From assembly GCA_964621195.1 (NCBI GenBank), contig CAZULJ010000004.1, positions 16,620-80,619 of the forward strand: a stretch of 64,000 nt of DNA, written 5' to 3'. Of the stretch, positions 15,098 to 64,000 are shown in pieces. Under the pieces are notes generated by a model. It was not told the origin of the DNA. It was given only the letters and a program-made list of their open reading frames with translations, and searched no databases. Made by a program: the position numbers and the translations under genes. Each line of letters begins with the position of its first letter. Within the stretch, counting starts at the first letter, position 1. Origin of the DNA: an uncultured Candidatus Saccharibacteria bacterium (lineage in GTDB: Bacteria; Patescibacteriota; Dojkabacteria; SC72).

Positions 15098-16936
15098 ATG
15101 AACAGGATAATACTAAAGTTGCTTCTCACATTAACGATTCTCTTTACCTGCGTTTATACTTTAAATGCAAGTGATTACGATTTCTCAATACAAAACAACA
15201 CCACAATTCAATACACAACAGGTGATGAATATGTCAGTGTTAAGACTGAGTATATACGTGAAGTAAAAAATAGTGACTTCTACTATTCCACACAGGGAGA
15301 GAAAATCTTTCACATACCAGATCTACCAAAGAGTAAGCAGTATGAGCTTGAATTAGAAAGACAATTTAAGAAAGACTCCTTAAAGGTAGTTGATAACAAT
15401 GGGAAAGCCATTCCCTTTACAGTAGAAGATCTTGAATATGGAAGCGGTATATATGTAAAAGTTCCAAACTATAGACAAACAACGTATGGAAACCCATACA
15501 AGATCTATGTTGAGTATAGGACTCACGATTTAGTAAAAAGAGTTTACGATCACGTAATACTTTTAGCACCAGCATTACATGAGGATACGGAATTCGAACA
15601 GATAGATAGTAATACAGGGACAAAGACCTCTTTTAGCTATGATTTGCATATAGTTACAGACAGTGATATTGCTCCTCTTTCAAATATTTATCCTAAAAGT
15701 TTTCAGGAAGAGACCAAAGATAGTAAAACCACATATACATTCGCATCAAAGGATAGGGTTGGGAACTCTCCTTCCTTAGAATTTGGGACGGACCAGATTT
15801 ACAGATTCGAGCTTAAGTACAACACACCTAAGACAGATAGCTTAATACCAGAGAAATATTCATCAGTATTTAATGCTCTTTCTACAAATATATATGAGAT
15901 ATCACTACCTAGAGAGTTTGCAGAGACAAATCAGAAGGTGAAAATAGAGGAGATATTACCTACTCCTTCTAAGATTTCCCAGGACCTTGAGGGCAATATA
16001 ATTGCAAGGTTTGAGGTCCCCGCAAACAAAAGTAGTGCAATCTTAATTACTGGATATATCTTTGTCCAACAAAGTGAGTATGATCAAAGGCCTTTAATTC
16101 CAAACCTAAGCATAGAGGAGTATGCCGAAATGGTAGAGAAGGATTCTAACCTAAACAAATATCTTACCTCCTCCAAATTCTGGGAATCTGACGATCCATA
16201 TATACAAGATGAGGCAAAAAAACTTGTAGAGAGTAGTAGCTCCTTTTTAAACTTAGTTGAAAATGATTACAGATATATAAATGATAGACTTGAGTACGAT
16301 GAGAGTAAGGCAAACAGTGACAATGAGAGAATAGGAGCAAGGGCAGCACTACAAGGTGGTGGTTCTGTTTGCATGGAGTATGCAGACTCAATGATTGCAA
16401 TACTTAGAGCGCAAGGGATTCCTGCCCGCGCTGCACTTGGATACTCTAATTTAAATGTATTAAGTAAGACAAACGAGGAAGGTAGTACTAGGCATCAATG
16501 GGTACAAGTATGGATACCCGATTACGGGTGGTTAAGCATTGATCCTACATATGAGAGCGAGAACATGCTTATTGGCCAAAATATTGAGAAAGTTCTTTGG
16601 GAGACATTCTACAATGAAGATCTTACAAATATTAAAATTTACTCTGCAGATAGTACTACCAATGAAGATTTTTCAGACTATTCTGTAAAAATATATGCCG
16701 TTTCTGAATCTCCTAATCTCGATACATTACTCGATTACTCGGATGTAAGGTCTGTGGAAGATACAAAAAATACACCAGAAGATACACTTAATACTTTTGT
16801 TAAAACAACAACAATTGGTAAATCGGTAGTTATCTTACTCCCAATATTAACAATACTAGGAATATTAATAGCCCTACTGTCATTAACTACATACATCTTC
16901 AGACAGATTAAAGCTCGTAAAGCTCATCAAGGTTAA
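15098..16936 (+). CDS. Secreted transglutaminase-like cysteine protease domain protein, with signal peptide and C-terminal TM
   Basis: The transglutaminase core is GGGSVCMEYADSMIAILRAQGIPARAALGY...HQWVQVWIPDYGWLSIDPT (Cys-His-Asp). N-terminal signal and C-terminal hydrophobic anchor. Confidence 0.6.
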   Translation: MNRIILKLLLTLTILFTCVYTLNASDYDFSIQNNTTIQYTTGDEYVSVKTEYIREVKNSDFYYSTQGEKIFHIPDLPKSKQYELELERQFKKDSLKVVDNNGKAIPFTVEDLEYGSGIYVKVPNYRQTTYGNPYKIYVEYRTHDLVKRVYDHVILLAPALHEDTEFEQIDSNTGTKTSFSYDLHIVTDSDIAPLSNIYPKSFQEETKDSKTTYTFASKDRVGNSPSLEFGTDQIYRFELKYNTPKTDSLIPEKYSSVFNALSTNIYEISLPREFAETNQKVKIEEILPTPSKISQDLEGNIIARFEVPANKSSAILITGYIFVQQSEYDQRPLIPNLSIEEYAEMVEKDSNLNKYLTSSKFWESDDPYIQDEAKKLVESSSSFLNLVENDYRYINDRLEYDESKANSDNERIGARAALQGGGSVCMEYADSMIAILRAQGIPARAALGYSNLNVLSKTNEEGSTRHQWVQVWIPDYGWLSIDPTYESENMLIGQNIEKVLWETFYNEDLTNIKIYSADSTTNEDFSDYSVKIYAVSESPNLDTLLDYSDVRSVEDTKNTPEDTLNTFVKTTTIGKSVVILLPILTILGILIALLSLTTYIFRQIKARKAHQG

Positions 16937-18416
16937 CAGCCTTTTTACCCTCTTCCATTCTATCTTCAGTAGTAGCATACAAGGTCATAAGGATATCACC
17001 CTTCTTTATCTTCTCTCCAGGCATCTTGTATATATATATTCCTGCATTCTTTATCTTTGGAGTTCCAAGTGCTCTTGCAATCTCTACGATTTCCCTTGTC
17101 CACATATACTTTATTGTTCCCTCCCTATCTGATACAACATCATATGTTAACTCTCCAGCTTTTAAATCTTCAGCTTTTACAACCTGCTTGGCCCCTTGAG
17201 CCTTCGCTATATCCCAGAATTTCTTCAATGCTTTGCCAGTATCAAGTATCTCAAGAGCAATTTTTTTACCCTCACCCTTCTTTGCCTTACCATTGTGTTC
17301 AAATATTTCAGCAGCCATATCTAATACCGTCTCTTCCATACCAAGGGGGCGTTTCTCACTTCGCTCCAATATTCTAAGACAGTCCCTCATCTCAAGTACA
17401 GGTCCAACACCATTACCATCAGGACCTTTCACTACTCTCCTAAAGGTTACACACTTAATACCAAACTTATCAAAGAGTTTCTCAAATTCTCTCTCAAGAA
17501 ATTCTAGGTCATCTGGTCTCTCCAACTTTGTTCCCTTACCATATGGGAGATCTATAAGGACAGAGGTTACTCCCATTGCAATCTTTTTTGCAACGATACT
17601 CACCAAGACCTTTTGGAACTCCTGTATCTTTAAAGATCTTTCAACATTAATAATCTCATCATCTGCTGGAGCTAGATACAAAGATCCTCCCCATATCATA
17701 CAAGCACCCTCTTTCTCTACTACTTCGTACACTCTCTTTTTTGTTAGAGCTACTGGCATTACTGTCTCTAATATATCTGTCGTTCCAGCCGGAGAGGTTA
17801 TTGCTCTTGTGGAACTGTTGGGTATTACCAAACCGCTTGCTGCAAGTATAGGAACAAGTACAGGGGTAATACCTTTTCCAGCCGTACCACCGATAGAGTG
17901 CTTATCTACGACTAGATCCTTGTTCTTTTTTATATATTTGAAATCCAATATCTCTCCAGATTCGGCCATACCTTTGGTCATCCATTTGATTTCGTCGTCG
18001 CTAAAACCTGGATTAAAAAATGTTGAAACAAAAAATGCAACTTCTGTCTCCTTTAACTTTCTTGATCCAATATCTTCCATAATTGCAAGCAATTCCTCCT
18101 GGTTGAGCCTCTGTCCAGAGATCTTCTTCTTTATTGCCTCTAAGGACTTCCCAGGCTCTTGTATATCTACAAGGACCTTTGCACCGTTTGGTATATGATA
18201 TTCTTCAGGAATCTCCTCATACAGACCCACTTCCCCTATAGATACCTCGCTATCAGAAATTATAACTTTTACGTAAAGCTCAATGTCCTTGTAACCCAGT
18301 AAAACTATATCTCCTTCATGTATACCTAGGTCATCAGCATCACTTTGGTGAACAACAATGAAGAGATCTTTACCGGCTCCGAGATCAACTTTCTTACTCT
18401 TAAGATATAGCGCCAT
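16908..18416 (-). CDS. AMP phosphorylase (archaeal-type, thymidine phosphorylase family, DeoA-like)
   Basis: About 500 aa with the extra N-terminal domain. DKHSIGGTAGKGITPVLVPILAASGLVIPNSSTRAITSPAGTTD closely matches the AMPpase/TP active-site block. Confidence 0.75.
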   Translation of the reverse strand: MALYLKSKKVDLGAGKDLFIVVHQSDADDLGIHEGDIVLLGYKDIELYVKVIISDSEVSIGEVGLYEEIPEEYHIPNGAKVLVDIQEPGKSLEAIKKKISGQRLNQEELLAIMEDIGSRKLKETEVAFFVSTFFNPGFSDDEIKWMTKGMAESGEILDFKYIKKNKDLVVDKHSIGGTAGKGITPVLVPILAASGLVIPNSSTRAITSPAGTTDILETVMPVALTKKRVYEVVEKEGACMIWGGSLYLAPADDEIINVERSLKIQEFQKVLVSIVAKKIAMGVTSVLIDLPYGKGTKLERPDDLEFLEREFEKLFDKFGIKCVTFRRVVKGPDGNGVGPVLEMRDCLRILERSEKRPLGMEETVLDMAAEIFEHNGKAKKGEGKKIALEILDTGKALKKFWDIAKAQGAKQVVKAEDLKAGELTYDVVSDREGTIKYMWTREIVEIARALGTPKIKNAGIYIYKMPGEKIKKGDILMTLYATTEDRMEEGKKAVNLDELYEL

Positions 18417-18440
18417 TATAGTTAGTTATTTTAGTTTATT

Positions 18441-19379
18441 TCAAAAAAGCCAAGGGTACTTTGCTTTCACAACCTCAGCAATTTCTTTAGGTTTCAGTAT
18501 ACCAAATTCGGTCAAGATTCCAGTAATCAAAGAGTTATCTACTATCTCGAATGCAGGATTAAAAATCTTAAGCTCTTTAGGAGCGTCTTCCCATAACTCC
18601 CTACTCTCACGAACCTCAATCTTGAGTTCATCTCCCCCTATCTGAGGGTCTACCTTTAAAAGTGGTGAAACAACATACAATGGCTTACTTGCATGGTAAG
18701 CAGACATAGCAATACCCCAACTTCCAATCTTGTTAACACAGTAGCCCTTTGTAGTCAGTTGGTCACAGCCAATAAAGACTGCACCTATCGAAACAGAGCC
18801 TCTACCGATAACAAAAGACTCTGCAGCACTATCTGCAATCAAAGTAGTAGAAATACCTGCCTCCAAAAGACTTTTCGCAGTCTTATGCCCTTGAAAAAGA
18901 GGTCTTGTTTCAGTACAAACCGCATCAAATGAGTCTTTTCCTTGCGCAATCCCTTTTATTACAGAAACTGCCGTAGAAGAATGACAATGAGTTAATATAT
19001 TTTCTAAAAATCTTACCTGAGGTACACAGTAATCAATAATGGCTCTCTTTGTGTCAGCAATAAGGTATAGATAGTTGTCACAGTATTCCTCTAAACGCTG
19101 TTTCATACTATCCAAGGATGGTAAATCAGCATTCTTCGATTCATAAGTATGTTCTACAAAACGGACACCATTTTTAGCTAAAGGCTCATTTGATCTAGCA
19201 TTGGCCAACCTATTACCTACCTCAAGAAACTCTTTGTAAAACAGGCTAGAATCTCTGGTTTCGGACTCCTGTATATATGTCTTCATTCCTTCTAAGGTAG
19301 CAATAGCAACATTGGTTGCACCCTGAATGTTCAACTCTTTTATATCTTTTTCGATATCAAGTATCTTTTTGATCTCCAT
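18441..19379 (-). CDS. Ribose-1,5-bisphosphate isomerase (eIF-2B alpha/beta/delta-like, e2b2/MtnA family)
   Basis: 312 aa. GATNVAIATLEG and a Rossmann-like C-terminal half typical of the eIF2B-related isomerases. Adjacent to AMP phosphorylase. Confidence 0.6.
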   Translation of the reverse strand: MEIKKILDIEKDIKELNIQGATNVAIATLEGMKTYIQESETRDSSLFYKEFLEVGNRLANARSNEPLAKNGVRFVEHTYESKNADLPSLDSMKQRLEEYCDNYLYLIADTKRAIIDYCVPQVRFLENILTHCHSSTAVSVIKGIAQGKDSFDAVCTETRPLFQGHKTAKSLLEAGISTTLIADSAAESFVIGRGSVSIGAVFIGCDQLTTKGYCVNKIGSWGIAMSAYHASKPLYVVSPLLKVDPQIGGDELKIEVRESRELWEDAPKELKIFNPAFEIVDNSLITGILTEFGILKPKEIAEVVKAKYPWLF

Positions 19380-20843: not shown

Positions 20844-22262
20844 TTACAACATACGTCTGGCTTCCTCCAGCAATTTTTCTTTTGTATTCAAAAGAGGATC
20901 CTCAATTACCATATCTAGAAGGTTTTTCAATATCTCCCCCATCTTAGGACCAGGCTCCACCCCTATACCCCTCAAATCCTCCCCACTTATATCTAAATCT
21001 GTAATCTTAAGGGCCATATCCTCCTGTCGAACTCTTGAAATGTGCTTTTGTAACTCTTCTAACTCTGTTGGCTTAAATGCAGAACTAGGATTTGAACTAG
21101 CATCCGCAATTCTTAGTTTAAAAAGATCTTCAACATTCTCATCACCAACCCTTTTTAAAAATCTTCGAACAGCAGCATCACTCCATTGAGTTAACAGTAT
21201 TTTCTCCATATCCTCATGACTTACCTCCCCTTCAATATGAGGGTAGTAGAACATATGATTCTGAACCAAATTCTTTACTCTATTAATTTCTGAGTTAGGA
21301 AATTTCATTCTCTTAAGAATACTTTCCACCATATCAGCACCCATTTTGTCATGACCATAGAAGTGACCATTACCCATATCTGTACGTGGCTTTGCAATAT
21401 CATGCAACAATGCAGCAAGCTTAACGCTATCCTCTGCAGCATCACAAGTTTTTAAACTATGCCAATATACATCATGGGCATGATACAATTTCTGTTCAAC
21501 ACCATAGCCCTCCAAAAGCTCTGGCAAAAATATATTTAACAGGCCAGTTACTCTTAAAAGCTCTATACCCTTAGAAGGCTTGGAAGAGTTTAACAAAAGC
21601 TTCATAAACTCATCCCTTATTCTTTCCATAGAGACCTGCTTGGCAACAGGTAGTGCCTCTTTAATAGCAAGAAGTGTCTCCTCCTCTATTTCAAAATCAA
21701 GTTGAGAAGCAAGTCGACAAGCCTTAAAAGCACGCAAACCATCCTCCTTAAATCTTTCAAGAGGAGTACCTACAGCTCTTATCAATTTCAGATTAATATC
21801 GGTAATACCACCAAAAGGATCATAGATATTCCACTCCTGATCCTGCACATTCCCCTCGATAGTAGCATTAGATAAATCCATAGCCATTGCATTGATAGTA
21901 AAATCCCTTCTTCCAAGATCCAAATCAAGATCATTTACAAACTGGACTTTAGTTGGCCATCTTCCATCAACATAATCAGATTCACTTCTAAAAGTAGTTA
22001 CCTCAACCTGTTTTGTTTCTCCAGACTCATCTGGAACAAGCGCAAGAACAGTACCAAATTTCGCACCAGTAGATACAGACTTAGGAAAAATCTCTAACAT
22101 CTCATCTGGCTGAGCATTTGTAGCTAAATCGTAATCATGAGGTATCTTACCCATTAAAATATCTCTTAGAGCACCACCTACTAGGTAAACATCATAGCCC
22201 TCTTTACTAAGCGTTCTCGCTACTTTTTGTACATATGATGGTATTGTATATCGTATTTTCAT
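20844..22262 (-). CDS. cca: CCA-adding tRNA nucleotidyltransferase with HD domain. The start is probably Met at 22262.
   Basis: Pol-beta-type NTase head GGALRD...DYDLAT. HD motif HDIAKP. Confidence 0.8.
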   Translation of the reverse strand: MKIRYTIPSYVQKVARTLSKEGYDVYLVGGALRDILMGKIPHDYDLATNAQPDEMLEIFPKSVSTGAKFGTVLALVPDESGETKQVEVTTFRSESDYVDGRWPTKVQFVNDLDLDLGRRDFTINAMAMDLSNATIEGNVQDQEWNIYDPFGGITDINLKLIRAVGTPLERFKEDGLRAFKACRLASQLDFEIEEETLLAIKEALPVAKQVSMERIRDEFMKLLLNSSKPSKGIELLRVTGLLNIFLPELLEGYGVEQKLYHAHDVYWHSLKTCDAAEDSVKLAALLHDIAKPRTDMGNGHFYGHDKMGADMVESILKRMKFPNSEINRVKNLVQNHMFYYPHIEGEVSHEDMEKILLTQWSDAAVRRFLKRVGDENVEDLFKLRIADASSNPSSAFKPTELEELQKHISRVRQEDMALKITDLDISGEDLRGIGVEPGPKMGEILKNLLDMVIEDPLLNTKEKLLEEARRML

Positions 22263-23443
22263 TTTCTTCTTTTCCTTAGGAAATAGTACCAAAGTATTGA
22301 TACAACAACAAGGAAGGAAAATCCGATAACTAGATATTTTGGGAAATAGAATATACCAGTTTTTGGGAGAACAGCTAAACCCAAAACTTGCTCGAAATCA
22401 TCTTTTACCTCAGGGTTTTCTACCTCCCCCTCATTATTTACAACATCCATCTTTATAACGTCGGAATATATTTCATATGGTATCCTTTCTATACAAAAAG
22501 ATTCCACAAAAGGCTTAACTCTAGAAGATACATAGTTTAGCGATTGCCCATTTAAGGATCTCACACCATACATAATTGCGGACTCACCAACTATATTTGA
22601 TTCCTGATTCTCACCAACAACTGCACACTCTCTAACAGTATTTGGATTTGATATTTTTGCATAACCGAAATCTGTTTCATCAGAGATATCGAGAACATAT
22701 TCATACATACACTCCTCATATGGCAGGAAATCCCTTGTCAAAGAGTATTCACCATGCTCAAAAAGTATATCTTCTTCATAGCTTTCAGTTATATTTCTAA
22801 CATACACACGCAAAAGCACTCTTCCATTCAATACTTCTGCCTCCCATCTCTCAAAAATTATTGGAGAGATAACCTGCAAAGAATCAAGCCTGAAAAAGCC
22901 CGAAGAGGCCTCATTCACAATACCAAGTCCCTCATATCTATGGACAAAACCACCCCTGGGATAGTTCCAAGATATAACCCGAAATGGAACTTCCTCAAAA
23001 TCTCCCTCCACATTTACAACCCTTCTAAGATCACCTCTTGATCTATCATATCTTGAAAGAAAAAGATTCAAGGATTCAATATATACCTCTCCATCTGACA
23101 TATTTTGATAGAAATAGACTACATCGACAGTAGCGCCAGGAGGTAAAGAAACTGAATCATATACGCCTGGACGTCTAACTAAGCCGTATAAAGTATCGAA
23201 ATATACAAACTCATCAAAGAATGAAGCTCCATACAAAAGAGATGAACTACTTCCAGAAATGCTATTGGAATTAAAATTTATACAGTTAGGACAGACTCCT
23301 GGGTCAGGAACACTCCCAATACCAAAAGCTACAGTATCATAGAATCTGTTTTCTATTAGGTCACCACTTGGAAAGAAATTATCTGCATATAAATAGGAGG
23401 AAAAACAAAGAAGCAATACAAAGGAGAAAAATACAGATCTCAT
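22259..23443 (-). CDS. LPXTG-type cell-wall-anchored surface protein
   Basis: N-terminal signal peptide. The C-terminus reads LPKTG + hydrophobic stretch + RKRRK-stop, a canonical sortase sorting signal. Confidence 0.6.
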   Translation of the reverse strand: MRSVFFSFVLLLCFSSYLYADNFFPSGDLIENRFYDTVAFGIGSVPDPGVCPNCINFNSNSISGSSSSLLYGASFFDEFVYFDTLYGLVRRPGVYDSVSLPPGATVDVVYFYQNMSDGEVYIESLNLFLSRYDRSRGDLRRVVNVEGDFEEVPFRVISWNYPRGGFVHRYEGLGIVNEASSGFFRLDSLQVISPIIFERWEAEVLNGRVLLRVYVRNITESYEEDILFEHGEYSLTRDFLPYEECMYEYVLDISDETDFGYAKISNPNTVRECAVVGENQESNIVGESAIMYGVRSLNGQSLNYVSSRVKPFVESFCIERIPYEIYSDVIKMDVVNNEGEVENPEVKDDFEQVLGLAVLPKTGIFYFPKYLVIGFSFLVVVSILWYYFLRKRRK

Positions 23444-50598: not shown

Positions 50599-51654
50599 TT
50601 AAATAAGCTCTTCCCAGGATTTTTGGACTTTTTGTAACAGGTCTATATGATCAAGCATAGAGGCTGTTCCCCTTGCAACAGCTGAAAGTGGATCCTCAAC
50701 AATCTTAACTGGGATATTCAACTCCTCCATCCAGAATTTATCCAACCCCTTAATCAATGCCCCCCCACCTGCAACATGTATACCGTCATTGTATATATCT
50801 TTTAAAAGCTCCGGAGGAGTATCTTCAATAGCATCTTTAACAGCTTCAGTTATTTGAGTCAAAGAAACCATAATTGCTTCACGAACCTCTATACTACTGA
50901 AGTTAACAGACTTTGGTAGGCCTGTTAACAGATCTCTACCTTGAATTACAACCTCTTTCTCTTCCTTCATTGGAGATGCTGACCCTATTTCTATCTTTAC
51001 ATCTTCAGCAGTTCTTTCACCAATTAAAATATTGTATTTATCACGGACATAATTAACTACATCTATATTCATCTCATCTCCCGCAATTCTAATAGTATTG
51101 TCTACAACAATATCACCCAAGGAAAGTACAGCAATTCCAGTAGTACCACCACCGATATCAACAATCATGCTTCCAGAGGCCTCTTCAATTGGCAATCCAA
51201 CACCAATAGCTGCTGCCATAGACTCTTCAACTATAAAAACTTCACGAGCGCCAGCAGTCTTTGCAGCATCAATTACCGCCTGCCTTTCGACTTCAGTAAC
51301 GGAAGAAGGGACTCCAACAACAACCCTTGGTCTTGGTATTTTAAAACCCTTAACATAGTTGCTGTGAGCACTGTTAATAAAGTGGTGAATCATTGCCTGT
51401 GTGGTATCGAAGTCTGAGATAACACCATCTCTTAAAGGTCTTACAGCCACAATATTCGCAGGCGTTCTACCAATCATCTCCCTAGCCTTTTGCCCAACAG
51501 CCAGCACCTGTTTGCTCCTCTTATCGATTGCTACAACAGATGGTTCTGAAACGACAATGTCTTCGCCACGCAAATATACCATTGTATTTGCAGTACCAAG
51601 GTCTATACCAAGATCGTATGTAAATATTTCCCAAAGGGAATCAAATACTGACAT
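50599..51654 (-). CDS. mreB: Rod shape-determining protein MreB
   Basis: Actin-fold motifs LGIDLGTANT, VVGVP, DIGGGTT. Confidence 0.9.
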   Translation of the reverse strand: MSVFDSLWEIFTYDLGIDLGTANTMVYLRGEDIVVSEPSVVAIDKRSKQVLAVGQKAREMIGRTPANIVAVRPLRDGVISDFDTTQAMIHHFINSAHSNYVKGFKIPRPRVVVGVPSSVTEVERQAVIDAAKTAGAREVFIVEESMAAAIGVGLPIEEASGSMIVDIGGGTTGIAVLSLGDIVVDNTIRIAGDEMNIDVVNYVRDKYNILIGERTAEDVKIEIGSASPMKEEKEVVIQGRDLLTGLPKSVNFSSIEVREAIMVSLTQITEAVKDAIEDTPPELLKDIYNDGIHVAGGGALIKGLDKFWMEELNIPVKIVEDPLSAVARGTASMLDHIDLLQKVQKSWEELI

Positions 51655-56573: not shown

Positions 56574-56858
56574 ATGGCAACCAAAACCGACAACAAATGC
56601 AAAGGCTGCGATCGCTCAGGTGAAGAGTGCTTGGGGTGTACATCCGATTTAGATGCATCCGAGCTTCTCGAAATATTCCTCGGGGAAAAAAGTGAGGAAG
56701 AGCAGATTCAATTTTTCGTAGAAATACTTAAAGTTGGACCTCAAGATGCAGCAGATTTGCTGACATCCTTCCTCGGAAAAAGAACCGAAAGTGAGCAAGT
56801 TGAATTCTTCGAGCGATTGCTAGAGAAGGAGGGGTTAGGACCAATCGATATCGAATAG
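56574..56858 (+). CDS. Small acidic Cys-motif protein with an internal tandem repeat, inserted between rplA and rplJ
   Basis: AAGGAG SD 8 nt before the ATG. 94 aa. CKGC-x7-CLGC. Two roughly 29-aa repeats, ELLEIFLGEKSEEEQIQFFVEILK and DLLTSFLGKRTESEQVEFFERLLEK, with conservative substitutions. Local GC is above the window average. Confidence 0.4.
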   Translation: MATKTDNKCKGCDRSGEECLGCTSDLDASELLEIFLGEKSEEEQIQFFVEILKVGPQDAADLLTSFLGKRTESEQVEFFERLLEKEGLGPIDIE

Positions 56859-56898: not shown

Positions 56899-56952
56899 AA
56901 GAGAGGACGGTAGATTGCAATCTACAACTAGCATCATATGCCGTCCTCTCTT
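56899..56952 (+). promoter_or_regulatory. 12-bp perfect-stem hairpin with a roughly 30-nt loop in the rplJ upstream region
   Basis: The arms AAGAGAGGACGG and CCGTCCTCTCTT flank a loop containing the 16-nt palindrome GTAGATTGCAATCTAC. Confidence 0.4.
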
Positions 56953-56980
56953 GACTGAACCATTGCCAATCATATATAAT
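56951..56980 (+). promoter_or_regulatory. Candidate sigma70 promoter for rplJ-rplL
   Basis: TTGACT-N18-TATAAT. The -35 overlaps the 3' arm of the hairpin. About 95 nt upstream of the rplJ ATG. Confidence 0.4.
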
Positions 56981-57073
56981 CCCCTTAGTAATTATCCTAA
57001 GAAACATGGTACAAAAATAAATCCATGCGAGGAAACTGATAATTCAAAAATATTAATTAATTAAGTACATACG

Positions 57074-57631: not shown

Positions 57632-58036
57632 ATGTCAGACGAAGCAAAAACTCTTCCAACATTAACAGAGAATGCACAGAAAGTAATCGAAATGGTTGAG
57701 AAAATGACCGTTTTAGAACTTGCAGACCTTGTTAAGGTTATGGAAGACAAATTCGGAGTAAGTGCTGCAGCTCCAGTAGCAGTAGCAGCAGCTCCAGCAG
57801 AGGCTGCACCTGCAGAAGAAGAGAAATCTTCATTCAATATTGTTCTTAAAGAAGCAGGAGCAAACAAGATCGGAGTAATCAAAGTAGTAAGAGAGATTAC
57901 AGAGCTTGGATTAAAAGAAGCAAAGGATCTTGTAGAGGCTGCACCACAGACAGTAAAAGAGTCTGTAAAGAAAGAGGATGCAGAAGCTATCAAAGCAAAG
58001 TTCGAAGAGGCTGGTGCAACTGTAGAGTTAGCATAA
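57632..58036 (+). CDS. rplL: 50S ribosomal protein L7/L12
   Basis: Ala/Glu-rich hinge. C-terminal domain [24 protein letters not shown]...[14 protein letters not shown]. Confidence 0.9.
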
Positions 58037-58058: not shown

Positions 58059-58088
58059 AAGAGGTCTTGAAAAAGACCTCTTTTTTTT
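58059..58088 (+). terminator. Strong rho-independent terminator after rplL
   Basis: AAGAGGTCTT-GAAA-AAGACCTCTT followed by TTTTTTTT. Confidence 0.75.
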
Positions 58089-58167
58089 CCCACGGCTATA
58101 TTCGACAATGAATACCAAGACAAAGTATAATGTGGCGGATATATTCTAATTTTTCAGAATATTAAAA

Positions 58168-58833
58168 ATGTTTGATACAACAAGCTTAACACAGTGGGTT
58201 TTAGATCATGGAGTCCCCCCTACTGCATTAGAGCTACTAATGGCAATTTCTGTATTAGCGACTGTGGTAAGTATCGCAAGATATGTCATAGGTTCAAAAA
58301 CATATGGCATATATGCACCAATACTTCTCGCAATCGCATATTCATATACAGGGTTAAAATACGGACTTTCAGTAACACTACTAGTCATTCTTACCTCTTT
58401 AATCTCCTACAGCATACTTAAAAAGATTAGAATGCACTACTTAACTAGAATCGCTACCAACTACACGATACTCTCAATGTTACTAATCCTCTTCTTTGTA
58501 TTAATAGATCGATTTGGACTAGGATTGGACAATATGCATAATATTCCCCCTCTCGCATTCATATCAATAGCTGCACTCTCTGACTTCTTTATCAAACAGT
58601 ATGTAAAGAAATCACTTGAAGGATCTTTACTCACACTCTTTGGAACAATAACTGTTGCAATAGTTGGTTGGTTTGTAATATCTAGAGAAATAATCTCGGA
58701 ATATTTGATCCTAAATCTATGGATACTACCCGTACTAACAATCGTAAATATCCTACTAGGACAATTTACAGGGTTAAGAATCAGAGACTATTTCAGATTT
58801 AGACTAAGCAACAAAGATGACTCTAGCAATTAA
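58168..58833 (+). CDS. Seven-TM integral membrane protein, first gene of the ATP-grasp operon
   Basis: 221 aa. I count seven hydrophobic helices of about 20 aa each. Cytoplasmic basic tail RIRDYFRFRLSNK. The stop overlaps the next gene. Confidence 0.55.
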   Translation: MFDTTSLTQWVLDHGVPPTALELLMAISVLATVVSIARYVIGSKTYGIYAPILLAIAYSYTGLKYGLSVTLLVILTSLISYSILKKIRMHYLTRIATNYTILSMLLILFFVLIDRFGLGLDNMHNIPPLAFISIAALSDFFIKQYVKKSLEGSLLTLFGTITVAIVGWFVISREIISEYLILNLWILPVLTIVNILLGQFTGLRIRDYFRFRLSNKDDSSN

Positions 58834-60295
58834 CAATAGGTATAGCCAAATATTAGGCTTAAACCGAAGGAATCAAGAGTATGTGAGACCATACAATCCT
58901 CCTTCTGCCAAAGCTATTGCTGACAATAAAATACTAACAAAGAGAGTCCTAAAGAAAGAGTTAATACAAACACCGGAGGTCTACAAACTTGTAAGAACCA
59001 AAAAGCAATTACAATTTTTAGATTGGGATAGCTTACCAAAAAGCTTTGTTATAAAGCCCAACAAAGGAACAGGTGGAAATGGAATAATCGTATTCTACGG
59101 AAAGAAAAAAGGACAAGATGCATGGATAAGACCAAATGGATCAGTTATGACAAAGAGAGATATAATTCTTCATATAGAAAATATACTAGAGGGTAGATTC
59201 TCGATGGGTTCTCGTAACGACATTGCTATCATAGAGGAAAGAATTAAGACAGATTCCCTACTAAAGCAGTACTCATACAAAGGCGTTCCAGATATTAGAA
59301 TAATCTGCTTCAACGAGGTTCCCGTAATGGCTATGCTAAGATTACCAACTAAAAGATCTAATGGTACTGCAAATCTGCACTCGGGCGCAATATGTACAGG
59401 TATAGACTTAGAATCAGGTATTACGACCTACTCTATGCATATGAAGGCCTCTGCCTTTAGAACAGATTCCTACAAGCTTGTAGACTCAACCTTAGATCTT
59501 CAAGAGAATAAACCTCTAAGTGGTATTCAAATACCGTACTGGAACGAGATGTTAGAAATCGCACTTAAATGCCAGAAAGCAAGTAAACTCGGATACCTTG
59601 GTGTAGACATCGCAATAGATGCAGAAAAGGGCCCTGTTGTATTTGAAATAAATGCTAGACCAGGCCTCGGAATACAAGTAGCGAACCAAGCTGGTCTTAG
59701 ATGGAGGTTAGAGAAAGTAAAGGACCTGAATATAAAGAGTATAAAACATGGGATTAGAGTCGCAAAGAATCTCTTCGGAGGAGAAATTGAGGAAAATATT
59801 GAAGCTATCAGTGGTAGAAAGGTACTCAACATAGTTGAAAAAGTTACCCTCTTTAACAAAGGGACCGAGATAAGCAAGATTAAGAAGGCAAAGAAAATGC
59901 AAAAGGAAATAGTAAAGGCCTTCATGGACACCGGGATACTGACATCCAGAATCTCTTCCATACTTGCAAACAGGATAGGTTTTCTAAAAGCTGGGAAAGA
60001 TTTTGAGTCTTTAGATGTACCAAAAAGATTTGGAAGTTTCAAAGAAGCACAGGACTACATGGATAAGTATGAAAAGGATATCTGTACACGATACCCTGAT
60101 ATAAAAAGACTTGCTAAGATCTTAGAAGATGGAGAAATAAAAATAAGACCAGTATTTGAGATACCCATTAAAATATCTGACTCTATAAAAATAACAGAGT
60201 TTGTATCTACAGATTCCAAAGAAAATCTCTACCCAGTTGTCATAGGTAGGGCTGAACTATCCGGTTTCCTTATCGATACAAGTAATACATTCTAA
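58817..60295 (+). CDS. ATP-grasp amidoligase, RimK-related / sugar-transfer-associated ATP-grasp-like, with about 170-aa C-terminal extension
   Basis: FVIKPNKGTGGNGIIVF (ATP-grasp B-loop region)...LGYLGVDIAIDAEKGPVVFEINARPGL (C-terminal Mg/ATP motif). 492 aa. Confidence 0.6.
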   Translation: MTLAINNRYSQILGLNRRNQEYVRPYNPPSAKAIADNKILTKRVLKKELIQTPEVYKLVRTKKQLQFLDWDSLPKSFVIKPNKGTGGNGIIVFYGKKKGQDAWIRPNGSVMTKRDIILHIENILEGRFSMGSRNDIAIIEERIKTDSLLKQYSYKGVPDIRIICFNEVPVMAMLRLPTKRSNGTANLHSGAICTGIDLESGITTYSMHMKASAFRTDSYKLVDSTLDLQENKPLSGIQIPYWNEMLEIALKCQKASKLGYLGVDIAIDAEKGPVVFEINARPGLGIQVANQAGLRWRLEKVKDLNIKSIKHGIRVAKNLFGGEIEENIEAISGRKVLNIVEKVTLFNKGTEISKIKKAKKMQKEIVKAFMDTGILTSRISSILANRIGFLKAGKDFESLDVPKRFGSFKEAQDYMDKYEKDICTRYPDIKRLAKILEDGEIKIRPVFEIPIKISDSIKITEFVSTDSKENLYPVVIGRAELSGFLIDTSNTF

Positions 60296-60314
60296 AATAT
60301 TTCTCAAAGAAACT

Positions 60315-61292
60315 ATGAAAACATACGAAGAATATTTACAAGAAGCAGGTAATGTACATCTAGCCTACTACGTTGAAGCTGCAGATACGCTGGGCATAAA
60401 GTATGAGATCGTAAAAAGATCCCTTCTAGCAAAATTTTCAAACGATACGAAACATTGGTTCATAATTAATACTGCTACACCTCTTACCAATACAACAAGT
60501 ACTACAATTGCTAAGAGAAAAAACCTAACAAACGAGATCCTGTACAAGGCTGGGATACCAGTACCAAGGCAAGTTGTTTTAAGAAATAAAAATGAAGCTA
60601 TAAAGTTTTTTGAAGAGTACAAAACCATAGTCATCAAACCCTCTCAACAATTGGGAGGGAATGGTGTGACCTTACTACCAAAAGATAAAGGACAGGTAAT
60701 AAAGGCATTTAAAAGTGCAGATAAGTCTTCAAAGGCAAAAGATGAGAACAGAGTAATTGGAGAAGAATTCATAGAAGGAGAAAACTACAGATTCCTAGTA
60801 GTAGGAGATTCTGTTGTAGGCATTGTGAGAAGAAAGGCAGCTTTTGTGGTTGGAGATGGAAATAACAGTATTAAAAAATTAATAGAGGAGAAAAACAGAG
60901 AGAGAAAGAGTAACCTACTTAAGCCAATCCCTATAGATACTGAAGTTAAATTAAGATTAGAGAATCTTAAAATAAATCTCAATACCGTGCCAAGTGAAGG
61001 CGAAGAAGTTATACTTAGATACAACTGTAACCTAAGTACTGGTGGTACAACACAGGAGTGTTCATCCCAAGTACATGAATACTACAAAGAGATTGCCGTC
61101 AGTGCTGTGAAAGCAATTGGAACAGTATTTGGGGGAGTCGATATAATTACTCCAGATATTACACAACCTGCAAAATGCGGAGTAAATGAAATAAACTACA
61201 ATCCAGGTCTAAGACTACACTACAAAGTAGATGAAGGAGAGGCAGTAAAGGTTGCAATACCAATAATGGAATATATATCAAAAAATATTTAA
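60315..61292 (+). CDS. ATP-grasp ligase, cyanophycin-synthetase-like
   Basis: IVIKPSQQLGGNGV...ENYRFLVVGDSVVGIVRRKAAFVVGDGNNSIKKLIEEKN...NLSTGGT...GVDIITPDI...VNEINYNPGL parallels the CphA ATP-grasp domain. Confidence 0.6.
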   Translation: MKTYEEYLQEAGNVHLAYYVEAADTLGIKYEIVKRSLLAKFSNDTKHWFIINTATPLTNTTSTTIAKRKNLTNEILYKAGIPVPRQVVLRNKNEAIKFFEEYKTIVIKPSQQLGGNGVTLLPKDKGQVIKAFKSADKSSKAKDENRVIGEEFIEGENYRFLVVGDSVVGIVRRKAAFVVGDGNNSIKKLIEEKNRERKSNLLKPIPIDTEVKLRLENLKINLNTVPSEGEEVILRYNCNLSTGGTTQECSSQVHEYYKEIAVSAVKAIGTVFGGVDIITPDITQPAKCGVNEINYNPGLRLHYKVDEGEAVKVAIPIMEYISKNI

Positions 61293-61309
61293 TCTTTTTC
61301 TAAAACAAA

Positions 61310-63007
61310 ATGTTTAAAACATTACAAGGTTTAAATCTAGAGTCCCAGTATACAACTGTAAAAATATCATTAGAAGGATCAAATATTGGAGAGATAACAA
61401 AACTTCTTGATCAAATAAGTTCCTTCCACCCTATCTTTCTCTATGAATATATCCTCTCTCCGAAGGAACTTTCAATACGTTCAAAATTACCTGAAATATG
61501 GAGAGAAGCTGCTAATACACTCAACCAACTCTCAAAAGAGGAAATAAAATATGAAGATGCTCATGATATTCTGGTCAATACAATCATCTCAAAGAGGGTT
61601 AAATCAATGTCTACCATACCAATACTACACGCTGCTCACCAAAAGAATATCGAAACGAACTTAGCAGTATTGAGCAAATCAATAGTAGATGGATACGATT
61701 TAGGATACAACAGTACATTTAATAGATACTATGTACTTGGGTGTGGTAAGGGTTCCTCAGTTACCGTTTCAGTAGGATCATCAAAAGATTCAACCTACGG
61801 ATTTAAGATCCAAAGAGATAAATGGACAACAAACAGAATAATAGATAGATTGTGTCTGCCACTTCCTAAGTGGGAAGTAATAAATTCAGAAGAACATCTA
61901 GAGAAAGTTTGGGATAACTATGCAAAACCTTTAGTAATCAAGCCAACAGGTTTAACAGGAGGAAAAGGAGTAAGTGTAGGAATTAAAACACTTGAAGAAG
62001 CAAAGATGGCATTCAAAAGGGCAAAGAAAGATACAGATAGTAAGATAAGATCTCCCTGGCAAACAAAGATAATGATCCAAGAGCAAGTAAAAGGAGAAGA
62101 CTATCGACTACTCGTTGTAAATGGAAAGCTTGAGATTGCCACTAAAAGAATCCCTGCGTTTGTTGAAGGTGATGGAAAAAAGACTATCGAAAAATTAATA
62201 GAGGAAACAAACAAAGATCCAAGAAGGGATATAAAAAATCCGACCCATATACTAAAGCCAATAATCATAGATGAGCCACTTCTCGAACTACTAGAAAAGA
62301 ATGGCTTAACTCTTAAATCTATTCCAGAAAAAGGTTCAAGAGTATATGTAAGAAACATTGCAAGCATGAGCCAAGGAGGTATAACAGAGGACTTTACTGA
62401 TGAGGTAAGTAAAGAAATTAAACTTCTAGTTGAAAGTATTGCACAATCAATACATGCATTCACACTAGGTGTTGATGTGATTTGCCAAGATATTACTAAA
62501 CCATTAACCAAGGAGAATGGTGCTATCTTAGAAATTAACACAATGCCCGAAGCATACCTGAATTTCTTTCCAGTAATTGGTAAACAAAGAGGATACGTTG
62601 CAGATACTTTTGTAGAGGGCTTACTCTCTGAGAATAAGTGTAAAAAGATAGTTGTTGTAGGACAAAGCATTAGCGATATCCCTACGAACTTAAGAAGATG
62701 GTGGAAGATTAAGAACGAAGATACTGTAGGAGAAATTGTAGAAGATCGTTACTACATAAACGGTATGCAAATAAATGAAGATCTAGAAAGAATACAGGCA
62801 TTTGAAGCTATAAAATGTAATGCTTCACTAGATGTAATAATTCTCCATCATAGAGACTGGAATGATGTTGCCGAATTTGGACTAGGATTTGATCATATAG
62901 ATACCCTTCTCATAACCAAAGAAGAGGCAAAGGACAGAGAAAAAGTAAAATTGATGAAGAAGTATAGAGGTATGAAATTAATAAATAAAATAGAGATAAT
63001 CTCCTAA
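61310..63007 (+). CDS. ATP-grasp ligase, cyanophycin-synthetase N-terminal-like. The C-terminal region lacks a Mur-ligase P-loop.
   Basis: LVIKPTGLTGGKGVSVG...EDYRLLVVNGKLEIATKRIPAFVEGDGKKTIEKLIEETNKDPRRD...SMSQGGIT...GVDVICQDI...ILEINTMPEAY. 565 aa. Confidence 0.65.
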   Translation: MFKTLQGLNLESQYTTVKISLEGSNIGEITKLLDQISSFHPIFLYEYILSPKELSIRSKLPEIWREAANTLNQLSKEEIKYEDAHDILVNTIISKRVKSMSTIPILHAAHQKNIETNLAVLSKSIVDGYDLGYNSTFNRYYVLGCGKGSSVTVSVGSSKDSTYGFKIQRDKWTTNRIIDRLCLPLPKWEVINSEEHLEKVWDNYAKPLVIKPTGLTGGKGVSVGIKTLEEAKMAFKRAKKDTDSKIRSPWQTKIMIQEQVKGEDYRLLVVNGKLEIATKRIPAFVEGDGKKTIEKLIEETNKDPRRDIKNPTHILKPIIIDEPLLELLEKNGLTLKSIPEKGSRVYVRNIASMSQGGITEDFTDEVSKEIKLLVESIAQSIHAFTLGVDVICQDITKPLTKENGAILEINTMPEAYLNFFPVIGKQRGYVADTFVEGLLSENKCKKIVVVGQSISDIPTNLRRWWKIKNEDTVGEIVEDRYYINGMQINEDLERIQAFEAIKCNASLDVIILHHRDWNDVAEFGLGFDHIDTLLITKEEAKDREKVKLMKKYRGMKLINKIEIIS

Positions 63008-63008
63008 C

Positions 63009-63962
63009 ATGAAATATTTAATAATTGATAAAAGACAGAGGGTTGAAACCGGGAATGAGGATAAAATTGCAACTGCCAACTTAAGAATAATTGAAGAATT
63101 GGACAAGAAAGATATACCCTACTCTCTTGTATACAATGATGAAATAGAGTTTCAAATAATCGATAGTGAAACATCGATATTTGTAAAAGGCGAAGATATA
63201 CGAGAATATACTCATATACTGTTTAGAGGACATGCTTTACATAACGAAATTGAGTATCAATATAAAAGATATATCATCGATTACATAGATCAATATAACC
63301 TAAAAAATCCAAAAGAAAGGATATTAATACAAAATAGCGAAGCAATAAAAACCCTTCCATATTACAATAAAATAGCACTCGGTTTGTTCTGTTCTCAAAA
63401 TGACATCCCCTACTTCAATACCTATTACAGAACAGACGGCAACTATATTGCACACAGAACGACCCTAGAGACATACCCCGTCATAATGAAAGAGTATTCC
63501 GGGGCAAATAGAGTTGAAATTATTGATGGAAAAGAAAAAATTAAAAAGAATGTATTTAAGATAACTCACGAAGATGATTACAGGCAGGAAGGATTACAAG
63601 GCCAGGACCACTCTAGGTTCTTTATACAGGAGTTCTCGGATAGTGGTATGGATATCAGAATATTCGTAAAATTGGGCAAGGTAATTGCTGGATGGAAGAG
63701 GAAAGCGACCGAAGGTTTCATGACCGTAAAGGACGGAGAATACTCCATGTACAACAACCCAGAGAAGGCCGATAAAGAACTTGCAGAGAATGTTGCACAG
63801 AAACTCAATGCGGATTTTATTGCTGTAGATCTTATGTATCTCAACAACAAACCATTACTACAGGAAGTTAGTTATCATCCAGGATTTAAAGCTTACGAAA
63901 CAAAGATCGAAGGAGAACCAGTAAATATTGCAGAGGCAATTATAACTGCCTTTAAAGGATAG
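63009..63962 (+). CDS. ATP-grasp ligase, RimK/glutathione-synthetase-like
   Basis: FIQEF...GMDIRIFVKLGKVIAGWKRKATEGF...ADFIAVDLMYLNNKPLLQEVSYHPGFKAY parallels RimK (LVQEY...[25 protein letters not shown]...LDVAGVDIL...LVMEVNASPGL). Confidence 0.6.
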   Translation: MKYLIIDKRQRVETGNEDKIATANLRIIEELDKKDIPYSLVYNDEIEFQIIDSETSIFVKGEDIREYTHILFRGHALHNEIEYQYKRYIIDYIDQYNLKNPKERILIQNSEAIKTLPYYNKIALGLFCSQNDIPYFNTYYRTDGNYIAHRTTLETYPVIMKEYSGANRVEIIDGKEKIKKNVFKITHEDDYRQEGLQGQDHSRFFIQEFSDSGMDIRIFVKLGKVIAGWKRKATEGFMTVKDGEYSMYNNPEKADKELAENVAQKLNADFIAVDLMYLNNKPLLQEVSYHPGFKAYETKIEGEPVNIAEAIITAFKG

Positions 63963-64000
63963 CTAAATACCAACCTTCTTAAATACTGACTTCCAAAGTT

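Follow-up and report, generated by a model that had tools for sequence, protein, structure and literature searches.

A 64,000-nucleotide stretch of contig CAZULJ010000004.1 from a Dojkabacteria genome (the window) carries a cluster of genes, here called g1 to g6 (Table 1), that encode a seven-transmembrane (7TM) protein, four proteins of the ATP-grasp ligase superfamily, one of them fused to a retropepsin-like domain, and a convergently transcribed metallopeptidase related to human MATCAP. That the cluster is a real, conserved and functionally coherent system is well supported. On balance, we read it as a system specific to Candidatus Dojkabacteria/WS6 in which a non-ribosomal, alpha-linked and probably acidic peptide would be built, and also trimmed, on the cytoplasmic side of the membrane. 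An earlier note, made from the letters of the window only, had proposed a five-gene operon for the synthesis of a peptide or peptide tag. Peptide or tag synthesis is still the best reading, but both peptidases had been missed, the retropepsin-like domain in g2 and the convergent MATCAP-like gene, and their presence turns a picture of synthesis into one of synthesis and trimming.

A six-gene cluster conserved across Dojkabacteria

The open reading frames (ORFs) g1 to g5 lie downstream of a predicted rplL terminator on one strand and are tightly packed, as the earlier note had described, with junctions of -17, +19, +17 and +1 nt for g1/g2, g2/g3, g3/g4 and g4/g5, respectively. The 17-nt overlap of g1 and g2 suggests translational coupling of the two genes. 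While five genes indeed form the run, the conserved unit was found to be six: g6 (388 aa, minus strand) is convergent with g5 and abuts its stop codon. The window holds only the last 38 nt of this gene, which was read from the 86.5-kb Logan contig SRR33038822_1573 that carries the window (locus L001); its extrapolated coordinates are 63963-65129.

The gene order proved to be conserved in related genomes. All 11 genome loci (11/11) show the order g1 to g5 on the plus strand, g6 and a second mreB gene (mreB2) on the minus strand, and then a gene for a PEGA-domain protein on the plus strand. Among 80 metagenome loci, the full set of six is present in 42, the remainder being truncated where a contig or flank ends, and none deviates from this order, although some genome and metagenome loci duplicate one another across databases. 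The proteins of this main clade are 49% to 84% identical to those of the window (g1-g6). Full-length orthologues in the same order at about 90 other loci place the cluster far beyond chance. All named homologues of g2 and g4 come from Candidatus Dojkabacteria or candidate division WS6, members of the candidate phyla radiation (CPR). Scans of genomes and metagenomes returned nothing other than Dojkabacteria-like loci and the ordinary CphA1 genes of Acidobacteria, and a search with g4 against representative sequences found only about 13 representatives with the full architecture, with all named ones again being Dojkabacteria. In five loci (L010, L016, L031, L033 and L070), a single gene (g2, g3, g4 or g5) is split into two ORFs, owing to either sequencing or assembly frameshifts or occasional pseudogenization.

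An exhaustive search with g4 also reached a divergent clade (L101/L102 and L105, the latter from GCA_016927995.1) with proteins 29-47% identical to those of the window. Here the cluster is rearranged: rplL and rplJ (minus strand) are followed by g1, g2 and g3 (plus), an additional gene (minus), g5 (plus), g6 (minus), a second additional gene (minus) and finally g4 (plus). The genes for MreB2, the PEGA-domain protein and a nearby GT2 glycosyltransferase are absent from the cluster neighborhood in this clade, and the GT2 gene is already missing in many main-clade loci. On the other hand, g6 is linked to genes of the g1-g5 set in every locus, including the rearranged ones. Thus, the six genes have been kept together through rearrangement and the mreB2 and PEGA neighbors have not. 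The two inserted genes in L101 lie between g3 and g5 (6121-6915, minus strand, 264 aa) and between g6 and g4 (9216-9701, minus strand, 161 aa); neither product has a Pfam match, and they could be clade-specific components.

A membrane protein and a ligase-peptidase fusion

The product of g1 matches PF14402 (7TM_transglut; E 2e-17, 64 bits, cut-off 25), and its hydropathy profile shows five strong and two weaker transmembrane segments followed by an Arg-rich C-terminal tail. The family is known from the rloABC locus of Pseudomonas aeruginosa (Lormand et al., mBio 2025, PMC12239564), but g1 aligns with the RloB model NF052267 only over the 7TM part (positions 316-505 of 508; 32 bits, cut-off 900), and the Pfam search gave no match to the transglutaminase ectodomain, PF14400. 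It is thus predicted to be the 7TM half of RloB without the ectodomain. Consistent with this assignment, BLASTP aligned g1 (E 1e-9) with the 7TM part of an "inactive transglutaminase family protein" from Legionella. The membrane protein had been flagged as potentially an unrelated transporter, but it proved to be a genuine and always co-located partner: g1 adjoins g2 in every locus that reaches g1, and in Proteobacteria its family pairs with ATPgrasp_ST ligases in rloABC.

The N-terminal part of g2 (residues 17-302) is a clear match to PF14397, ATPgrasp_ST (E 3.9e-68, 230 bits, cut-off 31.4). It scores 279.6 bits against TIGR02291, "alpha-L-glutamate ligase-like", which is under the cut-off of 314.2, so g2 is a member of the family and not an equivalog. 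Residues 8-320 are 41% identical (E 1e-62) to the rloC-type ligase of Legionella. Like g5, g2 also matches the RimK Pfam domain, and the top Foldseek matches of its AlphaFold (AF2) model are ArgX, RimK and Ddl. Residues K80, E140/E141, D159, R161, N186, H188, D264, E277, N279 and R281 do not vary among 41 orthologues.

The C-terminal ~130 residues of g2 appear to form a divergent retropepsin-like domain. In NCBIfam they match RloA3 (NF052264, E 1.3e-6) and RloA2 (E 4.8e-4), and PF05618 is matched by 12 of 15 g2 orthologues (best E 6.5e-6). Alignment with hhalign to the PF05618 protein of Legionella gave a probability of 89.9% (E 1.7e-6), and PDB entries 9g59, 9g58 and 2pma were matched with E values of 2e-3 to 8.5e-3. 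There are weak matches to other aspartic-protease families as well. The putative catalytic signature D371-T372-G373 lies within FMDTG, with D371 and T372 invariant in 41 orthologues; the Asp-Thr pair is retained in the divergent clade, and D-T-G is present in both the window protein and L105. The domain contains a helical insert. With the full-length g2 model, Foldseek returned ATP-grasp matches only and did not resolve the C-terminal fold, so profiles were used instead. No hydrophobic or transmembrane segment was detected in g2 by hydropathy, and there is no signal peptide ahead of the peptidase domain. The domain is predicted to be cytoplasmic, since it forms one polypeptide with the ligase, at its C-terminal end.

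Cyanophycin synthetase-like and RimK-like ligases

Three further ATP-grasp proteins are encoded by g3, g4 and g5. The families named in the earlier note (7TM_transglut, ATPgrasp_ST, two paralogous cyanophycin synthetase-like ATP-grasps and a weak RimK-like protein) were all recovered with Pfam and NCBIfam, where the best matches of the ligases are consistently ATPgrasp_ST, the CphA G domain and RimK. However, every NCBIfam score of the ligases against the models for cyanophycin synthetase, RimK or LysX is far under the curated threshold. The products of g3 and g4 are paralogues (32% identity over 253 aa, E 5e-34) and are 21-24% identical to cyanophycin synthetases. For g3, the match to TIGR02068 (E 3.9e-67) covers model positions 165-470 of 862, and the PDB matches to CphA1 (E 2e-34) and GshF (E 1.4e-33) are nearly equal. 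For g4, the match to PRK14016 (E 2.6e-73) covers positions 186-577 of 871, and the sequence alignment to CphA1 covers the G domain and runs on into the first part of the M domain. The AF2 model of g4 (pLDDT 90, pTM 0.87) has as its best PDB match in Foldseek the CphA2 structure of Gloeothece citriformis, 7ta5 (E 1.4e-38; TM scores 0.71/0.69 over 594 columns), and the alignment spans the whole N-G-truncated-M architecture. In place of the Mur-ligase P-loop VTGTNGKTT, the M-domain remnant has VVGQSISDI. The N domain (residues 1-140) has neither an HxxEH motif nor a cysteine, and hence no Cx19HxxEH motif.

To compare active sites, g3 and g4 were mapped by HMMER sequence alignment, rather than through a ligand-bound structure, onto CphA1, with residue roles described for TeCphA1 (Miyakawa et al. 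2022, PMC9427784) (Table 2). D276, E292 and N294 of g3 correspond to the Mg ligands of TeCphA1. Across orthologues, the catalytic residues of both g3 and g4 do not vary. In g4, the substitutions G217, S352, E414 and Y416 are invariant, the last three in 41 orthologues. The g4 signature R..AS[MV]SQGG ... E[IV]NT.PE.YLN is retained in the divergent clade, as are the g3 motifs RYNCNLSTGG and EINYNPGLRLH. Use of beta-Asp-Arg by StCphA2 requires the large-loop residues D362, R389, N393 and S395 (PMC10273328); in the large loop of g4, R348...S352-M-S354-Q-G-G, the CphA2 Asn has become an invariant Ser. The differing active-site residues indicate that g3 and g4 are distinct enzymes. From the residues it retains, g3 plausibly adds an Asp-like residue, while the remodeled pocket of g4 suggests that it takes a different incoming substrate, and neither protein looks built for beta-Asp-Arg.

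Table 2. Active-site residues of TeCphA1 and their counterparts in g3 and g4.
TeCphA1 residue	Role	g3	g4
K220, K261	ATP phosphates	K69, K108 (kept)	K171, K211 (kept)
R309	acyl-phosphate	R159 (kept)	R266 (kept)
R323	beta-carboxyl of incoming Asp	R173 (kept)	R280 (kept)
H267	P-loop His	Gly	G217
E215	primer Arg side-chain contact	Thr	K166 (unconserved alignment position)
N394	beta-carboxyl of incoming Asp	N239 (kept)	S352
S396	incoming-Asp pocket	S241 (kept)	S354 (kept)
G456	oxyanion	G298 (kept)	E414
R458	alpha-carboxyl of incoming Asp	R300 (kept)	Y416

The RimK-like protein g5 is divergent. It matches PF08443 (RimK; E 4.5e-9, 36.6 bits, cut-off 21) and RimK structures in the PDB (1.6e-5), but scores only 46.5 bits against TIGR00768 (cut-off 143.4) and 28 against PRK10446 (cut-off 331). 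The ATP-grasp hallmark blocks that had been attributed to all four ligases are missing from g5, where KEYSGANR replaces the Gly-rich loop, FMTVKDGEY replaces FRSNLHRGG of RimK, and E-V-S replaces E-x-N; g4 deviates as well in one block, which reads E-I-N-T-M-P-E rather than ending in PG. The loop and Mg-ligand substitutions of g5 are conserved in the main clade, with E-V-S in all ten orthologues. The divergent-clade protein keeps E-V-N, but the R-x-N...GG loop is missing there too. Judging from these residues, g5 may be an impaired or non-catalytic subunit or a ligase with unusual chemistry, so that the four ligases originally counted may be three competent enzymes plus one with a degraded active site.

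A MATCAP-like peptidase

The product of g6 matches PF08014 (E 2e-30, 106 bits, cut-off 27) and the "QEGLA" model TIGR02421 (E 7e-36, 124 bits), the latter well under its cut-off of 339; g6 is therefore not an equivalog of that family. It also matches the structures of human MATCAP (KIAA0895L), 7z5g and 7z6s, with an E value of 1.5e-14. The motifs HEVGTH (HExxxH) and EEGLATWNE are invariant in main-clade orthologues. In the divergent clade, HExxxH is retained and the EEGLA motif is altered.

Locus layout and neighboring genes

Coordinates of the cluster and its flanking signals are collected in Table 1. The rplL gene ends at 58036, 5' of g1, and the rplJ-rplL pair is upstream of g1 in many loci, but not all: rplL is non-adjacent in at least L012, L015, L016, L036, L081 and L082. 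Among the loci without rplL, the genes upstream of g1 have nothing in common. Base composition is uniform, with a G+C (GC) content of ~35%. An Rfam scan of the window identified tRNAs only. None of the six proteins matched a PADLOC model, and there is thus no sign of a defense system. ORFs on the minus strand within the genes (e.g. 62101-62670) were dismissed as coding-strand shadows, their apparent conservation tracking that of the genes.

Table 1. Positions of the cluster genes and flanking signals in the window.
Feature	Coordinates	Strand	Length	Assignment
g1	58168-58833	+	221 aa	membrane protein, 7TM_transglut family
g2	58817-60295	+	492 aa	ligase with retropepsin-like domain
g2 N-terminal part, residues ~1-362	58817-59902	+		predicted RloC-type ATP-grasp ligase (ATPgrasp_ST / "alpha-L-glutamate ligase-like")
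g2 C-terminal part, residues ~363-492	59903-60295	+		predicted divergent retropepsin-like domain (PF05618, RimB/RloA-type)
g3	60315-61292	+	325 aa	stand-alone ATP-grasp protein, CphA1 / GshF G domain
g4	61310-63007	+	565 aa	CphA2-like three-domain protein
g5	63009-63962	+	317 aa	divergent RimK-like ATP-grasp protein
g6, 3' end	63963-64000	-	last 11 codons and stop	MATCAP/DUF1704 ("QEGLA") metallopeptidase
Terminator-like hairpin	58059-58082	+		10 bp stem and T-run; ends the rplJ-rplL unit; consensus scan
Promoter-like site, TCGACA-18-TATAAT	58102-58131	+		11/12 sigma-70-like; 37 nt 5' of g1 ATG

Beyond g6 in the main-clade order is mreB2, which shares the strand of g6 and starts off 21 nt from it on its upstream side, followed by the PEGA-domain membrane protein and then the GT2 glycosyltransferase, which has multiple transmembrane segments. 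The region is bounded by genes for two MreB paralogues that share 46% identity. The first is encoded at 50599-51654 of the window (minus strand), with mreC and the gene for PBP2 upstream, and the other at 12143-13159 of L001 (minus strand). MreB2 has a conserved C-terminal extension, (T/S)GERxF(S/T)FN(K/R), which is followed by variable residues.

A proposed pathway of synthesis and trimming

We consider the cluster as two modules: module A, composed of g1 and g2, and module B, composed of g3, g4, g5 and g6. In RimK, GshF and the G domain of CphA1/2, the alpha-carboxylate at a C-terminus is first phosphorylated, after which the next amino acid or a dipeptide is joined to it. Given the chemistry of all characterized relatives, the cluster ligases, which would differ in specificity, are proposed to extend a C-terminus stepwise or iteratively (for CphA1, CphA2 and GshF see PMC9427784 and PMC10273328). 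At least one of the building blocks would be an acidic residue. The retropepsin-like endopeptidase of g2 and the MATCAP-like carboxypeptidase g6 would then limit, edit or recycle the product, as members of families that cut poly-Glu and trim acidic tails, respectively. Finally, g1 could tie the process to the membrane as an anchor, acceptor or conduit. Export of the product through the 7TM protein, as suggested previously, found no specific support; the protease domain is predicted to be cytoplasmic, unlike the secreted RloA. The analysis itself establishes that the genes are present and linked in a conserved way, to which families and folds their products belong, and that catalytic residues are kept; from there we infer the reaction chemistry, the acidic nature of the product, the order of action and the role of g1. 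As for the product, it may be a free peptide or polyamide or else a protein tail.

Several points weigh against this reading. The acidic product is suggested by analogy with RimK, RloA/RimB, the Asp pocket of CphA1 and MATCAP. The peptidase assignment in g2 has weak spots: the window protein scores 18.9 bits against PF05618, below the gathering cut-off of 27, and the L101 orthologue has D-T-N in place of D-T-G. In addition, the active site of g5 looks degraded. Conserved order by itself is weak evidence, because the loci belong to one candidate lineage with generally high synteny, and the divergent clade, which is the main independent support, comprises few loci. Moreover, in one locus (L107) g3, g5, g6 and g4 are present while the 1.2 kb before them holds neither g1 nor g2, which suggests that modules A and B may act independently. 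The terminator and promoter calls are consensus matches only. The hairpin is not evidence of function, and the promoter-like site is no more than suggestive, given that promoter-like sites are just as frequent in the region as expected from shuffled sequence.

In place of g1 and g2, L107 (754-3146) has a 149-aa ORF dissimilar to either; module A may be located elsewhere in that genome or may have been lost.

Alternative explanations

The rival that survives best, which we nevertheless regard as unlikely, is reversible C-terminal tailing of a cellular protein, in which the ligases write and the retropepsin-like domain and the MATCAP-like carboxypeptidase erase. RimK-RimB and TTL-MATCAP are characterized precedents for exactly such enzyme pairs, and the fusion of ligase and peptidase in g2 mirrors the reported RimK-RimB interaction. 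The candidate targets are the L10/L12 stalk proteins, the MreB paralogue co-directional with g6, and the cytoplasmic tail of the 7TM protein. Their positions are suggestive, with mreB2 only 21 nt from g6 in the main clade and rplJ-rplL adjoining g1 in the main and the divergent clade alike, though oriented oppositely in the two. However, the C-termini of MreB2 (…GFN, …SIT, …FRR), g1 (…DDSSN, …EDDK, …NVGK) and L12 (…VELA) are not acidic, and their final residues vary. Linkage also fails for two of them, as mreB2 is unlinked in the divergent clade and rplL is non-adjacent in at least the six loci listed above. MreB2 was accordingly rejected as a tailing target on the grounds of its C-terminus and its lost linkage. 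Furthermore, four different ligases exceed the needs of known tailing systems.

More doubtful still is decoration of an envelope precursor with amino acids or peptides. The acceptor would be a carboxyl-bearing glycopolymer, a lipid-linked sugar or a peptidoglycan precursor, the 7TM protein would couple the reaction to the membrane, and the modification would affect envelope strength and cell shape. PF14397 is named "sugar-transfer associated ATP-grasp", a 7TM-transglutaminase mutant of Shewanella overproduces membrane vesicles, and rlo mutants of P. aeruginosa are altered in cell shape, hypo-osmotic tolerance and beta-lactam sensitivity (PMC12239564). The main-clade cluster also adjoins genes for MreB2, the PEGA-domain membrane protein and the GT2 glycosyltransferase, but it is these very neighbors that are gone from the divergent clade, and the last of them from many main-clade loci too. 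The closest characterized relatives of g3, g4 and g5 extend the C-termini of peptides, not sugars, and the presence of two peptidases fits a peptide product better.

A third possibility, raised by the finding that g3 and g4 match cyanophycin synthetase before anything else, is nitrogen storage as cyanophycin (multi-L-arginyl-poly-L-aspartate) made by split genes, with g3 and g4 building the Asp backbone and another ligase adding Arg. The entire CphA2 fold is present in g4, and g3 keeps the Asp-binding residues of CphA1. Even so, cyanophycin as the product is disfavored to the point of being very improbable; the earlier note had offered a cyanophycin-like product as one option. The NCBIfam cyanophycin synthetase scores of g3 and g4 are 227-247 bits, compared with cut-offs of 850-877. 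No active M domain is present, since it is truncated and its P-loop destroyed. In the sequence alignment, the Arg-contacting Glu215 corresponds to K166 at an unconserved position in g4 and to Thr in g3, His267 corresponds to Gly in both, N394, G456 and R458 are replaced in g4, and the Cx19HxxEH motif is missing. Inspection of the neighborhood found no S51 cyanophycinase or isoaspartyl dipeptidase in or beside the cluster, and CphA2 has been described as a cyanobacterial enzyme. The idea that unrelated housekeeping ATP-grasp enzymes lie by chance beside a transporter is effectively refuted: the earlier note had set the ligases apart from housekeeping enzymes, and although there are weak cross-matches of the kind expected of any ATP-grasp protein, NCBIfam scores for housekeeping families (Ddl, GshB, PurD/K/T, CPSase, SucC) are 12-40 bits against curated cut-offs of 218-502, one to two orders of magnitude below (Ddl 27-40 vs 243, GshB 34 vs 299, PurD 17-37 vs 288, PurK 13-20 vs 318-326), the 7TM family is a specific partner of ATPgrasp_ST ligases, and the six genes stay together through rearrangement.

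Implications

The genomes of CPR bacteria are very small, yet six genes (~7 kb) are devoted here to a single system for amide ligation and trimming. That small genomes keep these genes together even through rearrangement points to an important function, possibly at the envelope. In P. aeruginosa, the rloABC-type module has effects on how cells tolerate osmotic stress, on their shape and biofilm formation, and on beta-lactam sensitivity (PMC12239564). The architecture of CphA2 appears in g4 outside cyanobacterial cyanophycin metabolism and with an altered pocket, which hints at other polyamides. The pairing of ATP-grasp and MATCAP-family proteins, now seen in three bacterial lineages, places the logic of the tubulin tyrosine cycle in bacteria. 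An improbable but attractive extension is a bacterial writer/eraser "tail code", in which the ligases would add differing C-terminal residues to a structural protein (MreB2 or the ribosomal stalk) and the peptidases would erase them. If real, this code would be the prokaryotic equivalent of the eukaryotic tubulin tyrosination/glutamylation cycle, and it may even be related to the ancestor of that cycle. A comparably novel reading is that split CphA-like enzymes make a new hetero-polyamide.

The system is not categorically new, because every component belongs to a known family and the association of 7TM, ATP-grasp and retropepsin proteins has already been described. In the literature covered, which did not include the key 2009 comparative-genomics paper, there was no description of the six-gene combination, the ligase-retropepsin fusion or such a CphA2-like pocket in CPR bacteria. 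Literature searches for cyanophycin in Dojkabacteria, and others for the Pfam family names, likewise found nothing.

Other features of the window

Several features outside the cluster were also recorded. Between rplA and rplJ (56574-56858, plus strand) lies an acidic ORF of 94 aa that begins with a CxxC...CxxC motif region and contains an internal repeat. Neither Pfam nor NCBIfam gave a match, and its stretch of DNA has 43% GC compared with ~35% around it. In L006, a shorter Cys-rich homologue is found at the equivalent site, so the ORF may encode a genuine small protein whose length varies. It was considered as a precursor peptide for the cluster and rejected, since rplJ-rplL intervenes, its C-terminus varies, and it is unlinked where rplJL is non-adjacent. 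Upstream of rplJ (~56900-57070, plus strand) four Dojkabacteria loci share a conserved hairpin, CAAGAGAGGACGG...CCGTCCTCTCTTG, with TTGAC...TATAAT and a leader of almost constant sequence after it. The arrangement has the look of an L10-leader-type element, with no Rfam family reaching its gathering score. At 16908-19379 (minus strand), a 502-aa AMP-phosphorylase-like protein (Glycos_transf_3 + PYNP_C) is encoded beside a 312-aa protein resembling the ribose-1,5-bisphosphate isomerase of the IF-2B family, a nucleoside-salvage pair typical of CPR bacteria and of archaeal RuBisCO pathways. Finally, ORFs of 352, 458 and 394 aa at 10116-12486 and 22259-23443 (both minus strand) have no Pfam match at E <= 1e-5.

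Comparison with known systems

The nearest relatives of the g4 G domain outside Dojkabacteria are giant proteins of 1,400-2,400 aa with two to three tandem CphA-G-like ATP-grasp modules. They differ from the cluster proteins in being fused rather than split and in carrying AMP-binding, acylphosphatase, PGA_cap, LPG_synthase_C or TPR domains, none of which the cluster proteins have, but they do provide a precedent for several such ligases acting as one machine. Among those inspected (P0253-P0258, 1,467-1,965 aa), P0253 (L103, 9781-15039) is encoded directly after an ABC exporter and an HlyD/AprE-like adaptor and before an LPG_synthase_C protein, and its locus looks like an assembly line for an exported polyamide.

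Gene clusters of the QEGLA type (TIGR02421/DUF1704) in Proteobacteria resemble the present one in having a MATCAP-family peptidase directly beside an ATP-grasp amidoligase. On a Shinella plasmid (L109, 5472-9214), a MATCAP-family protein, a GshB-type ATP-grasp protein and an N-formylglutamate amidohydrolase (FGase) are encoded by separate adjacent genes, and on replicon pGJ3-1 of Photobacterium sp. GJ3 (L110, 4038-7041) the GshB-type ATP-grasp gene overlaps the gene for a 665-aa FGase-MATCAP fusion. In these conserved ligase-peptidase-amidohydrolase clusters, however, the ligase is GshB-type (PF02951 + PF02955), an FGase domain is present and sometimes fused, and there is no 7TM protein, CphA-like or ATPgrasp_ST ligase, or retropepsin. 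A similar opposition is found in eukaryotes, where MATCAP/TMCP enzymes remove C-terminal residues that TTL/TTLL ATP-grasp ligases add to tubulin. The likeness lies in an ATP-grasp amino-acid ligase being opposed by a MATCAP-family HExxxH metallopeptidase; the difference is that the ligases here are not of the TTL family (PF03133, E 0.029 only) and that the bacterial host has no tubulin.

With regard to cyanophycin metabolism, g3 corresponds to the G domain and g4 to the full architecture of CphA2, which consists of N, G and a truncated, inactive M domain (PMC10273328), and the ATP-binding lysines and acyl-phosphate-stabilizing arginines are conserved in both. Departures include the apparent loss of His267 and the Arg-contacting Glu215 from g3 and g4, the N394S, G456E and R458Y changes in g4, and a non-cyanobacterial host; CphA2 is described as a cyanobacterial enzyme that repolymerizes beta-Asp-Arg (PMC10273328, PMC9262961). 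The primer-generating N-domain metallopeptidase motif, Cx19HxxEH, is present in 83% of CphA1s (PMC9262961) and, as noted above, is lacking in g4.

RimK-RimB, which carries out poly-alpha-glutamylation of S6 and its trimming, shares with g2 the pairing of an ATP-grasp alpha-amino-acid ligase with a cytoplasmic PF05618 peptidase, the latter putative in g2, and the fusion of the two in g2 parallels the reported interaction of RimK with RimB (PMC12239564). On the other hand, RimK-RimB has no membrane partner, and g5, the RimK-like protein, is without the R-x-N...GG loop and, in the main clade, without the Mg-binding Asn.

A close parallel is the rloABC operon of P. aeruginosa with its gammaproteobacterial homologues; 96% of RloB matches were reported from Proteobacteria (PMC12239564). 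In P. aeruginosa, the secreted RloA retropepsins cut runs of at least eight Glu residues in vitro, and RloA and RimB both cleave poly-Glu. Loss of all three RloA paralogues results in hypo-osmotic lethality together with defects in shape, biofilm formation and antibiotic tolerance; deletion of rloB or rloC suppresses the lethality fully and the other defects partially, and the product of RloC was left undetermined by the authors (all PMC12239564). Both this study and a 2025 J Bacteriol paper cite the work of Iyer and Aravind on amidoligases in connection with ATP-grasp/7TM-transglutaminase proteins, and the earlier note's pointer to that work is thus plausible. The same triad occurs on a plasmid of Legionella adelaidensis as a PF05618 protein (152 aa), a protein with both Transglut_i_TM and 7TM_transglut domains (508 aa) and an ATPgrasp_ST ligase (314 aa). 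In the window, the 7TM_transglut protein, the ATPgrasp_ST/TIGR02291-type ligase and the putative PF05618-type peptidase are likewise adjacent and co-directional. They differ in that g1 lacks the inactive-transglutaminase ectodomain, whereas the Legionella protein has both domains, and in that the peptidase is fused to the ligase and predicted to be cytoplasmic like RimB, whereas RloA is secreted by means of a signal peptide. The g2 peptidase also has its helical insert and a score below the Pfam threshold, and this CPR host adds three more ATP-grasp genes and the one for the MATCAP-like peptidase to the set. Judging from their domain content, g1 and g2 are a compact, fused version of the proteobacterial triad, and such an all-cytoplasmic version with extra ligases offers another handle on what rloABC-like systems make.

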